In this document: positions 13,878 to 27,525 of the stretch, in pieces
Numbering within the stretch: the stretch's first letter is position 1
How the letters are laid out: every line of letters starts with the position of its first letter
Origin: Longimicrobiales bacterium
GTDB taxonomy: Bacteria > Gemmatimonadota > Gemmatimonadetes > Longimicrobiales > Gaopeijiaceae
DNA length: 64,000 nt
Reading direction: 5' to 3'
NCBI GenBank assembly: GCA_965203485.1
Contig: OZ241892.1
Location: 1,088,001 to 1,152,000 of the forward strand
Notes under the pieces: generated by a model
The model's database searches: none
The model's input: the letters and a program-made list of their open reading frames with translations, nothing else
Told to the model about the DNA's origin: nothing
Translations under genes and position numbers: made by a program

Positions 13878-16800
13878 TCACGACGGCGGCCCGGCGCGGG
13901 CCAGCAGCTCGGCGAAGTCGTAGTTGACGCTGGTCACGCCGAAGTCGGGCTCGCGCTTGAAGGGACGGCGAAGGTAGCGGACCTCATGGGTTCCGTCGTC
14001 GCGGAACTCGACCAGGGCGAGGACGTATCCGTCGGGCTTGTTGAGGGAGGTGAGGATCTCGTTGCGCGTCACCGTGACCGCAACGGCCCCGGCGACCCGG
14101 CCCTTCACCTCGATGAAGCGCAGGCCGCCCGTCTCCGGATCTCGGCTCTCGATGTCGTAGCCCACGCGGTCGAACTCCCGGTCCACCGGTTCGAAGCCCA
14201 ACGTGCGCTCCACGTCCATGACGACGGCGCGGGCGCGGGCGGCGGCGGCTTGCGTGTCTGCGGTCCGGACGGCAGTGGTTGACTCGGCCTGGTCGCTCGT
14301 CCGGGCCAACAAGCCGATGGGCGCCACGAGCACGCCCCCCAGCACGACCGGCGGCAGAGACGAGACGAGCCGTTCCCGCTTCAGCGCACCCAGACGCGCC
14401 TTCAGCCGGGTCTGAAGGACATCGGCGCGCTTGGCGGCTTCCCCGGCGGCCAGGCGCGTGTCGGCGGCGCCGGCCTCGTCCTTGGCCTTGAGTTCCTGCG
14501 CACGGCGGTCCCAGTAGTTGATCTCCTTCGTGAGCCGGTCCTTCACCGCCGCTTCGGTCCGGTCGACGAGGTCCACGCGGGCCGCCCGCACCTCGGCCAC
14601 GTGCTCCGGCGCGATCTTGGCCACGGCGTGGCCGAGCGCGCTCTGCTCCAGCTCGGCGGTGATCCACGCGCATTCGGGGCGTTCCAGGAGTTCGTCGGGA
14701 CTCGGCTCGTCGTCCGCCAGCGGCCGGTAGTCCAGGTAGGGCGCGTGTCCGACGTGGCTGACCGCGCCGTCGCGCCGCAGCTCCACGTGCAGCATCCGCT
14801 TCGATATGACGCGGCGGGCGCCAGAGCGGTCTAGGCCTCCGTCCTGCACGGCGTGTTCCAGGTAGAAGAGGACGCGGGGCTCGCAACCGGAGTCGCGGTC
14901 GTCCACGAGCGTCGCCCCGCGCTTGAGCAACTCGCCGTGGCGTTCGAGCGTCAAGTCCAGCACGGCGTCCAGGAGCGGGTGCCCCGGACAGACGAAGGCG
15001 GCAGCGGGCTTGCCCGGCGGCGGCTCGGCTTCCTTCTCGAACACGATGCGCTCGTAGCGCGACAGCGCCGGCTCTCTCCCGCGACGACGTTGCGTGGCGG
15101 CCCGCACCGTCGAGGGGACCCGCGCGATCTCGTAGCGGCGCGGCTCCCGCTGCTTGGCCGCGCCGCCCAGGCGCCCGAACGCCTCCTTGAAGAACGACTC
15201 GACGTAGTGGGGCTGAAGACGCCGCGCCTCCGCCCGCTCCATCGACTCGCGGACTCGCCGCAGCCTGCGCGAGTCCATGGCGTCGTGGGCCAGGGCCCGC
15301 TCCTCGATCAAGTCGCGAAGCCTGTCCTGGTCCAGCGTCTCGTCCAGAACGGTGGTCAGGTGGGCCCGCACGTCGGGGCGTGCACCGTAGCGCACCGCTT
15401 GGAGGAGCAGGTCCCTCAGCGGCTTGCCTTCGAAGTGCAGCCGGCCCAGCACGTCGAACACTTGGCCGCCCAGCGACTGCCGCGCGGTCTCCAGCTTGTC
15501 CAGCAGGCGTTGGTAGACGTCGCCTTCCCGAGTGCCGTCGGCCACCAAGTTCCACAGATGGCAGACCTCGCGCTGGCCGATGCGGTGAATCCGGCCGAAG
15601 CGCTGCTCGAGCCGGTTCGGGTTCCAGGGCAGGTCGTAGTTCACCATCAGGTGCGCGCGCTGCAGGTTGATCCCCTCGCCCGCCGCGTCGGTCGCCAGCA
15701 GAATCCGAGTCTCCGGGTCGTGGCGAAACGCCTCCTGCGCCCGCAGGCGCTCCTCTCGGCGCAAGCTGCCGTGGACGACGACCAGCGCGTCGGGCCTTCC
15801 CAAGCGCGTGCCGATCCGATCCCGCAGGTACTCCAGCGTGTCGCGGTGCTCGGTGAAGACGACCAGCTTCTGGCTCGGCGAGGGCGTGTGAGCCGGAATC
15901 GCCCCCGCTCCGTAGGCGTGTTCCGAACCCTCGACGACCCTGGCCGCCAAGCCCGCGGGCGTGAAGATCTCGTCGAGCAGGCCGGCCAGCTCCTGCCACT
16001 TGGCGTCCTCGCCGCCGCGAAGGACGTCGTCGGCGAGTCGCTCGAGGCGACCCAGCGTGGCGATCTCGGCCTGGAGCTCGGCCATGGAGCGGGCCGCCGT
16101 GACCTGGCCGAGCAGATCGGCCTCGATGTCGTGCAGCTCGGCTTCGGTGGCTTCGTCGAGGTCATCCCACGCCTCCGCGTCCTCGAAGTCGAAAGTGGGG
16201 CCGCGGACGTGCAACGACGGCGGCAACGTCTCGTCGAGCGGCGTCGGCCCCGCGCGACTCGCCCGCCCGCCGCCCGTCTCGGCCCGCGCCGACTCCATCT
16301 CCCGCAACCGCTCCTCCAGCCGCTCTCGCCGGCGAACGAGCGACCGGTGAATCGCCCGTGGAGACGACGCCACGCGCCGCTGGAGCACGGTGAGCGCGAA
16401 CCCGATCGTCCCGCGCCGGTCCATCTCGAGCGCCGCCGCCCGGTCGAACTCCTCGCGTACGTAGTCGGTGACGGCATCGTAGAGCCGGGTCTCGCCCTCG
16501 GAGAGCCGGTAGGGGACGGTGTGCGCCCGGCGCCGGGGAAACACCGGTGTCCCGTCGAAGCGCACCAGACTCTCCTTGACCACGCGCCGCATGAGGTCCG
16601 ACGCGTCGGACTCGTGCACGCCGTCGCGAAAGCGTCCCTCGAAGCGGTCCTCGTCCAGCAGCGACATGAAGAGCTGGAAGTCCTGCTCCTTGCCGTTGTG
16701 GGGCGTCGCCGTCATGAGCAGGAAGTGGCGCGCGAGTCCCGACAGCAGGCGGCCCAGGCGGTGTCGCTTGGTGTACTTCACCTCGCCCCCGAAGTACGTG

Positions 16801-27100: not shown

Positions 27101-27525
27101 TGGAGACGACCGCCGACGACCACGGTTTGGTCGTCAAGCCGGACGTGGCGGGCGCGCAGCTGGAGCAGGAAGCGCCGACGGCGACCAACACGCCTGTGGA
27201 GTCGGAAGAGTCGGGCGGGACCGAGGGTGGGGACGCCGCGGTGCCCGAGGACGACCGGGACGGGACCCGTGACGAAGACGAGCGTCCCCGCGCACGCCGC
27301 TTCCACGGCTCGGTGAGCTTGGACCCGCAGCGCGTCGGCCGCGACGCGGGCCAGATCGCCGAAGAGGTGATCGCCCACTTGGCCGGCCTGGTCGGCTCCG
27401 ACGTGCGGGTGGCCCTGGAGATCGAGGCCGACATGCCGGACGGCGCGCCGGACCGCGTCGTGCGGGCGGTCACCGAGAACTGCCGCCAGCTGAACTTCTC
27501 CAGCCAGGGCTTCGAGGCGGAGTAA
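24181..27525 (+). CDS. DUF499 AAA+ ATPase with N-terminal Swt1-like HEPN domain
   Basis: RNKWAH (RxxxxH); PWR...PH.DV, EFAADL, QTNFGGGKTH, LIDEWV, YPVHPE and FQRTRGVLR motifs. Confidence 0.92.
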   Translation: MAVSYHERVGKAMDSLRRGLGPFVEREVRERVNRGIVQMRAVRRHAGDPKAAEKPLADWDAAALLKVMWEAWNDVFRFTLGRAERSLVQELRDWRNKWAHQERFSSDDAYRALDSSARLLAAVSAPEAAEVEESKAELLRLRYDQQLRNQKKQAGGSLVEAAAGSLKPWRDVAMPHADVATGRYQQAEFAADLWQVRRGEGEAEYRDPAEFFRRTYLTENLRRLLAGAVRRLAGKGGDPVVQLQTNFGGGKTHSMLALFHLFSGAAPRDSDEVAAVLADADESQPPRAKRVVLVGNRISPGNPDTKPDGTVVRTLWGELAWQLGGRDAFEQVRADDENATSPGDRLRALLAARGPVLVLIDEWVAYARQLHDQGDLPGGSFETQFTFAQALTESAKVVDDCLLVVSLPASAPGSEGAHPHADDAEVGGVRGRDALDRLSHVVGRVGAVWHPATSEEAFEIVRRRLFEPLQGDDAFKARDLTARAFAELYRRAQGDFPQECRDADYEKRIRAAYPVHPEIFDRLYTDWSSLVKFQRTRGVLRLMASVVHSLWESGDKNPLVLPSTIPVDDSRVQPELTRYLADNWTPIIEKDIDGSASLPHRLDSESPNLGKLSATRRVARTIYMGSAPLTLAANRGIDDRRVNLGCAMPGEQVSLFGDALRRLAAAATYLYQDGNRYWYATQPTVAKLAEQRAAELAGEPHRAAQELERRLRKEFDAVGPDQVRVHMLPRSVADVPDALDARLVVLPADKPYSRDADNAATAAAKEILARRGAGPRIYRNTLVFLAADKVRMQDMDQALREYLAWQSILAETDALNLDPHQAKQAAVREESADESVAARMPEVYKWLLAPEQANASAPVEWRAFQMRSRESAAASALGRIGREDLALPRMAASILRRHLDDVPLWRGNHVPVRQLAEDFATYLYLPRLKAPAVLARSVCEGVGLLSWELDSFAYADSYDEAKERYVGLRVAIGVETTADDHGLVVKPDVAGAQLEQEAPTATNTPVESEESGGTEGGDAAVPEDDRDGTRDEDERPRARRFHGSVSLDPQRVGRDAGQIAEEVIAHLAGLVGSDVRVALEIEADMPDGAPDRVVRAVTENCRQLNFSSQGFEAE

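Follow-up and report, generated by a model that had tools for sequence, protein, structure and literature searches.

A predicted Hma anti-phage locus with a divergent hmaA gene and two embedded defense cassettes in a Longimicrobiales genome

The analyzed window comprises 64,000 nucleotides of a Longimicrobiales bacterium genome (assembly GCA_965203485.1, contig OZ241892.1, positions 1,088,001 to 1,152,000). It contains a six-gene locus, which by its profiles and motifs is the known three-gene anti-phage system Hma, with two known defense cassettes, HEC-06 and HEC-03, lying inside it. Hma as a hotspot with named and validated inserts has already been published; unusual here are the flipped hmaA gene and an hmaB gene that has likely been replaced. 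The genome, hereafter G000, consists of a single contig of 3.56 Mb and was compared with its congener G001, with G261 and G284 of another genus, and with further relatives.

Identity of the locus

All six open reading frames (ORFs) are intact and carry the expected domains according to the ORF list, Pfam and the PADLOC profiles (Table 1). An earlier note, made from the letters alone, had called an SNF2-DUF3883 gene, a DPPY methylase, a HEPN-DUF499 ATPase, a GmrSD gene, an ABC ATPase gene and a PIN-like gene, and had proposed PADLOC as a check. These calls were confirmed by profiles and motifs, PADLOC naming each gene as part of HmaA, HmaB, HmaC, HEC-06 or HEC-03, and the role in defense assumed there agrees with the profiles and with the published Hma and HEC work.

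HmaA combines an SNF2 helicase with a C-terminal PD-(D/E)XK nuclease (Pfam SNF2, Helicase_C and NOV_C) and contains the motifs DDPGAGKT, DEAH, QRFGRIHRIG, GYDIES and FIEVKG. HmaB is by its motifs, DPFAGGG at amino acid (aa) 135 and DPPY at aa 562, a DUF1156 methyltransferase of the N6 type. The DPPY motif points to an amino-methyltransferase, predicted to be N6-type, whereas an m5C enzyme was named in the 2021 Hma paper (PMC8565338). HmaC is a HEPN-fused DUF499 AAA+ ATPase with RNKWAH at aa 95, TNFGGGKT and LIDE; the RN..H motif is kept in 74 of 75 HmaC sequences. The HEC-06 protein is a DUF262-DUF1524 fusion with DGQQR at aa 78 and EHILP (consensus EHIxP) at aa 470, and HEC-03 is represented by an ABC ATPase gene, with the Walker A, signature, Walker B and H-loop motifs kept, followed by a PIN gene with a conserved acidic site. 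The three hma genes are clustered with no more than three embedded genes between each, namely one between hmaA and hmaB and two between hmaB and hmaC. Because the ratio of nonsynonymous to synonymous divergence (dN/dS) against G001 is 0.12-0.27, all six genes are judged to be under purifying selection.

The system was named Hma by Payne et al. (2021; PMC8565338) and corresponds to the Type-1 BREX-related (BR) system (bioRxiv 10.1101/2025.10.09.681413 / PMC12839542). Embedded genes were reported for 931 of 1,485 Hma loci (62.7%; Payne 2024, bioRxiv 10.1101/2024.01.29.577857), and in Halomonas an AAA_21 ATPase pair lies between hmaB and hmaC in all loci, with GmrSD inserts also described (Liu 2024, PMC11232893). 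The HEPN fusion was found in 1370 of 2446 Type-1 BR taxa, and a layered model of restriction-modification plus suicidal HEPN has already been proposed in print (bioRxiv 10.1101/2025.10.09.681413). The view that the layout is not a described subtype is not supported, as the triad is Hma (Type-1 BR) and both inserts, HEC-06 and HEC-03, were defined as Hma-embedded and validated; the exact six-gene combination may be listed in supplementary tables of the cited Hma papers.

The locus shares with published Hma loci (PMC8565338, PMC11232893) the three proteins, the order A, B, C and the inserted defense genes, and differs by hmaA lying on the opposite strand. HEC-06 resembles the described cassette as a single GmrSD-like, Hma-embedded gene in which DGQQR and EHIxP occupy almost identical positions, and HEC-03 as an Hma-embedded pair of ABC ATPase and PIN; the difference is that both occur together in one locus here. 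The PADLOC labels for HEC-03 (A for PIN, B for ATPase) are the reverse of those in the preprint text (Payne 2024).

Among the 11 window proteins scanned, no match to the PglZ, BrxA, BrxB or BrxL profiles of BREX was found. The Gao-type PLD/DUF1156/DUF499 system (Type-2 BR) was rejected as an identification, as it has an N-terminal PLD/HKD nuclease and the nuclease here is C-terminal; the Type-2 BR profiles matched partially and far below their cut-offs (NF042964, 153 of 1100 bits; NF042963, 119 of 1000; NF042962, 168 of 1200). Elsewhere in G000, two more distant DUF499/DUF1156/SNF2 clusters and another DUF1156 methylase are encoded, with 25-39% identity (G000:C1:2925340-2943478, 3080063-3095070 and 2432416-2434953).

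Table 1. Features of the predicted Hma locus (positions in the window).
Feature	Position	Strand	Remarks
hmaA	13878..17516	-	SNF2 helicase + C-terminal PD-(D/E)XK (NOV_C/DUF3883) nuclease, 1212 aa; PADLOC HmaA 1567 bits
Divergent spacer, 163 bp	17517..17679	.	Between hmaA and hec-06; weak sigma-70-like + strand site
HEC-06 (GmrSD-like DUF262-DUF1524 nuclease)	17680..19383	+	567 aa; PADLOC HEC-06 605 bits; Pfam GmrSD_N, GmrSD_C
hmaB	19444..22317	+	DUF1156 amino-type (predicted N6-adenine) DNA methyltransferase, 957 aa; PADLOC HmaB 1277 bits
Central hmaB, about aa 110-900	19780..22140	+	Likely foreign low-GC allele; borders approximate; from GC3, nucleotide identity, dS
HEC-03 ABC ATPase (AAA_21/DUF3696)	22314..23699	+	461 aa; PADLOC profile PDLC04148, 508 bits
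HEC-03 PIN-domain predicted RNase	23696..24175	+	159 aa; PADLOC profile PDLC04147, 89 bits
hmaC	24181..27525	+	Swt1-like HEPN fused to DUF499 AAA+ ATPase, 1114 aa; PADLOC HmaC 1087 bits; Pfam HEPN_Swt1, DUF499

Divergent orientation of hmaA

The hmaA gene diverges from the other five genes across the spacer. As it is located on the opposite strand, the six genes cannot form one transcript, and hmaA therefore requires its own. The single plus-strand run described earlier was found for the GmrSD, methylase, ATPase, PIN and DUF499 genes, but not for the SNF2 gene; the GmrSD gene does lie on the plus strand, but it heads the run instead of being placed between co-oriented core genes. The close spacing reported for the run is exact: hmaB overlaps the ABC ATPase gene by ATGA (22314-22317), the latter overlaps the PIN gene by GTGA (23696-23699), and 5 nt (24176-24180) separate the PIN gene from hmaC.

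An assembly artefact was ruled out as the source of the flipped hmaA, since G001, G261 and G284, three other genomes of the host family, have the same six-gene layout and orientation; together with G000 they represent two genera and are kin to each other. An ongoing inversion of hmaA in the window was rejected as well, as no flanking inverted repeats and no matching recombinase were found in the genome.

For a wider comparison, the best 80 of 593 HmaC loci from GTDB were surveyed with flanks of up to 10 kb, many of them shorter. In all 40 loci where hmaA is visible, it is co-oriented with hmaC. Within the order, HmaA is present in 32 of 401 genomes, and the flanks of hmaA were read in 23 of them, leaving out nine in which it lies near a contig end. 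The six-gene layout is seen in four of the 23, twin hmaB genes with a divergent hmaA in eight (see below) and a co-linear arrangement in six; the others are a rearranged twin locus (G133), two partial twins, an unresolved case and one genome with hmaA divergent from hmaC in which no hmaB was seen.

Payne 2024 required the hma genes of a locus to share a strand, which removed the form with flipped hmaA from that survey. As all features at the protein level are present and the same-strand filter served quality and not definition, the locus is, on the basis of its proteins, an orientation variant of Hma, and same-strand filters miss a lineage of Hma loci with divergent hmaA.

In a quick IQ-TREE analysis, the HmaA proteins of six-gene and twin loci are sister clades (SH-aLRT 99; long branches, no clade test), a grouping that is weaker with FastTree. 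HmaB and HmaC of the six-gene loci are not sister to their twin-locus counterparts. As HmaA groups with the twin loci while HmaB and HmaC group elsewhere, a chimeric origin of the window locus is suggested; its descent from a twin locus that became locked was not established by these groupings. The promoter region of hec-06 recurs with its first codons as a direct duplicate beyond hmaA in G001 (L088:14150-14400), where a G-run and a membrane-protein gene with a frameshift come next, and in G284 the start of hmaB is duplicated beside hmaA. The duplicated 5' ends adjoining hmaA in both genomes indicate a recombined locus.

The standard promoter scan (threshold 9/12) revealed no site for either transcript. 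With a custom scan, a plus-strand sigma-70-like site (TTGACC-17-TAACGT, 17541-17569) scoring 8/12 was detected, and this weak promoter-like site is conserved in G001. On the minus strand, the custom scan of the 163-bp spacer yielded no promoter-like site before hmaA, and no clear ribosome-binding site was seen there.

Exchange of the hmaB allele

Between G000 and G001, HmaB shows 58% aa identity and a synonymous divergence (dS) of 2.2, compared with 74-92% identity and dS of 0.23-0.59 for the other five proteins. The nucleotide identity of hmaB to G001 is 81-92% at both gene ends and 51-74% over about aa 110-900. In the center of the gene, the G + C content at third codon positions (GC3) is 0.44-0.54, versus about 0.9 in hmaA, hec-06 and hmaC. 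It is likely that hmaB was recently swapped as a cassette for a foreign version, and we infer that the replacement proceeded through recombination in the conserved ends.

These differences suggest that HmaA and HmaC can work with more than one HmaB specificity, which would be expected if target recognition were a property of the methylase. Since hmaB turns over while hmaA and hmaC stay, the specificity likely resides in HmaB alone. The target-recognition region is probably located at aa 301-450, where the two hmaB copies of the twin locus in G133 differ, being 98-100% identical over most windows. With HmaA and HmaC about 90% identical and HmaB very different, G000 and G001 form a natural pair for asking whether the methylase sets Hma specificity. 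Should specificity be confined to HmaB, the discrimination between self and phage by Hma would become directly testable with such pairs of alleles, which share nearly identical HmaA/HmaC backbones.

HEC-06 and HEC-03 as mobile cassettes

HEC-03 and HEC-06 were each reported to lower plaquing alone in Escherichia coli, HEC-03 requiring both genes and HEC-06 its DGQQR and HNH residues (Payne 2024). A HEC-06 homologue with 22% identity acts against modified phage in vivo (bioRxiv 10.1101/2025.02.28.640651). In the HEC-03 PIN protein, the acidic residues D8, D46, E54, D111 and D132 are invariant in 15 of 15 aligned sequences. Its AlphaFold2 model (pLDDT 94) gave VapC/PIN proteins as best Foldseek matches with E-values of 0.009-0.03 and none at E<=0.001, a weak agreement that is consistent with the PIN assignment.

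A search of the 401 genomes of the order returned 29 matches to the HEC-03 PIN protein in 27 genomes, and four of these 29 matches have an Hma gene within 1.5 kb; for close HEC-06 matches in the 257 genomes of the family, this applies to five of 15. In the GTDB survey (best 80 of 593 HmaC loci), a full HEC-03 pair is located between hmaB and hmaC in two loci and a decayed HEC-06 is present in one. The order hmaB-ABC-PIN-hmaC occurs in two unrelated Pseudomonadota loci (L053 and L069). G000 itself carries second copies of HEC-03 and HEC-06 away from the Hma locus. In the congener G002 the Hma site is empty, with ruvX running directly into the NACHT gene, and HEC-03 is kept elsewhere (73% and 64% identical). 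Close HEC-03 orthologues (63-73%) were found without an Hma gene in 18-20 kb of context in all three genomes checked. Judged by the few matches near Hma, the second copies in G000 and the empty site of G002 with HEC-03 elsewhere, both cassettes are mobile and mostly free-standing. In relatives, most copies of HEC-03 and HEC-06 lack an adjacent Hma gene. A point in favor of the earlier note is that the complete six-gene layout is kept in G000, G001, G261 and G284.

Twin hmaB loci in relatives

Outside the window, relatives carry two hmaB copies head-to-head, one truncated (about aa 1-766) and one full, with two tandem tyrosine recombinases between them. Such loci were found in G144 (L156:3589-10973), G153, G114, G398, G397, G316, G065, G263, G133 and G585. 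The identity between the two hmaB copies ends at the same point in seven of seven aligned twin loci, where 21 of 23 twin-type copies, and none of the 64 hmaB copies of GTDB loci, have a quasi-palindromic motif; the motif was derived from the same twin copies on which it was scored, and these are kin. The arrangement is probably an invertible switch of methylase specificity. In having twin methylases around tyrosine recombinases, it resembles BREX PglX and DISARM DrmMI, for which programmed inversions were described (Milman et al. 2023, PMC9881135). The window differs from these, having one hmaB, no recombinase and no recombination-site motif: no second hmaB, repeat or twin motif was found in it, and no such recombinase in the whole of G000. 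Term look-ups for DUF1156 and DUF499 in the main text and one supplement of PMC9881135 gave no hit, and literature searches together with look-ups in that article and in the BREX-related survey returned no paper on an invertible twin hmaB in Hma.

Two findings argue against frequent flipping. The recombinase pair faces the full copy in nine of ten complete twin loci, G133 being the exception, and the 5' parts of truncated and full hmaB form separate clades (5/7 and 4/5 rows). Free flipping of the twin cassette is therefore unsupported. An inversion test was made for G153 with three runs, in which the Logan contigs all broke at a repeat of about 150 nt, leaving the orientation unreadable. One opposite-strand joint was seen, its short side being only 43 letters long and unlike the expected junction. 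The contigs are not hybrids, since at none of 21 positions do their variant letters agree with the partner copy.

When metagenomes were scanned with the recombinase alignment, most of what was returned were distant integrases, with an hma gene in one of 80 loci. The same recombinase pair was found beside Hma genes in records of Acidobacteriota and Gammaproteobacteria (L061:6416-18330 and L063:4-8043), and the element is therefore not confined to the host family.

Proposed mode of action and alternative explanations

We consider it probable that the locus consists of a BREX-like Hma core guarded by methylation and of HEC-06 and HEC-03 acting on their own, the locus being an insertion hotspot. 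HmaB would methylate adenine within a motif that its variable middle region determines. Scanning would be scaffolded by HmaC, a BrxC/ORC-like ATPase, and incoming phage DNA without the mark would be nicked or stalled by HmaA; nickase activity has been shown in a homologue, where defense against T4 requires it (Liu 2024, PMC11232893). Phage DNA with modified bases is the likely target of HEC-06, cutting of modified DNA having been shown for a distant homologue, and HEC-06 would in this way complement the core. In HEC-03, the ABC ATPase likely responds to a phage cue by releasing the PIN RNase, which would lead to cell arrest, and HEPN on HmaC may be one more RNase of last resort. The cassettes would likely gain co-transcription from a promoter before hec-06 as well as co-transfer with the island, hmaA being expressed from its own divergent transcript. 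The arrangement resembles BREX with embedded BrxU (pEFER), where a methylation-based core is joined by a GmrSD-family nuclease covering modified phage DNA (Payne 2024); this complementarity has been shown for BREX/BrxU and is a prediction for Hma/HEC-06.

Several points weigh against this reading. In the one published test of HmaB imprinting, T4 propagated on cells expressing HmaB plated no differently; HmaA protected against T4 by itself, and neither hmaB nor hmaC lies near about 15-19% of hmaA genes (Liu 2024, PMC11232893). By sequence, neither HmaB nor HmaC matches a solved structure. Furthermore, the six-gene combination with its tight hmaB-ABC-PIN overlaps was kept in four genomes of two genera, and this persistence could mean cooperation and not hitchhiking, the four genomes being kin. 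In a rival reading, the HEC-03 ATPase would guard the Hma core in the manner of PrrC and EcoprrI, with the PIN protein, and HEPN with it, being freed only when a phage inhibitor blocks the core. Translational coupling of hmaB, ABC and PIN with hmaC following 5 nt on, the recurrence of the layout in the four genomes and of the gene order in L053 and L069, and the PrrC and BrxU back-up precedents discussed by Payne 2024 speak for such a layered machine. We nevertheless regard it as rather unlikely, given that HEC-03 is active alone in E. coli, that 25 of the 29 PIN matches in the order lack an Hma gene within 1.5 kb, and that close orthologues of the cassette occur without Hma in all three genomes checked. 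The earlier proposal that the PIN effector fires if the core is inhibited is thus unsupported.

The T4 results would also fit a system that is not restriction-like, with HmaA as a stand-alone helicase-nickase sensing phage replication and its flip uncoupling it from hmaB and hmaC, which would form a module with a role of its own. The different nearest relatives of HmaA and HmaC in the six-gene loci agree with this, as does locus L002 (5188-13369, in G061), where hmaB and hmaC are kept at the syntenic chromosomal site next to a frameshifted hec-06 and a HEC-03 ATPase fragment, and no HmaA orthologue was found in the G061 genome (best match 44% over part of the length). That locus is decaying, however; hmaA adjoins hmaB/hmaC in all 40 GTDB loci where it is visible and does so even when flipped, and the fast turnover of hmaB alleles fits discrimination between self and non-self. 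This makes a stand-alone HmaA quite unlikely. A decaying or mis-assembled island with a silent hmaA would explain the missing promoter-like and ribosome-binding sites before hmaA, and the neighboring ppl-like gene is indeed broken by an IS5 element. With the same orientation in the independent assemblies of G001, G261 and G284, a dN/dS of 0.21 for hmaA and all its motifs intact, such decay appears highly improbable. A further extension of the probable reading, a methylation-guarded core with autonomous cassettes, is put forward tentatively: specificity would lie wholly in the swappable HmaB, and hmaA, split onto a divergent transcript, would let specificity change without self-cutting, by whole-allele replacement in the window and by twin inversion in relatives. 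We see this as possible but doubtful.

Neighboring genes

At the left edge of the island, a Phd/YefM antitoxin-like gene is located on the minus strand (window 8927-9172), for which no toxin partner was seen among the ORFs scanned. It is followed on the plus strand by a Ppl/TrlF-like PHP-ABC ATPase defense gene (9593-13259), which is split by an IS5-family insertion sequence (IS) element at about 11498-12358. Eight further near-full copies of this element with at least 98% identity are present in the genome, and a copy of it borders another ppl-like gene near G000:C1:3192000. Downstream of hmaC, a large NACHT protein is encoded on the minus strand (27651-33187), which is EruA-like with 775 bits (below the 1000-bit cut-off) and adjoins a PDC-S01 AAA_14/DUF4143 gene and a SoFic-like gene. 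The NACHT block is shared with G002, which lacks the Hma island, and has paralogues in G000.

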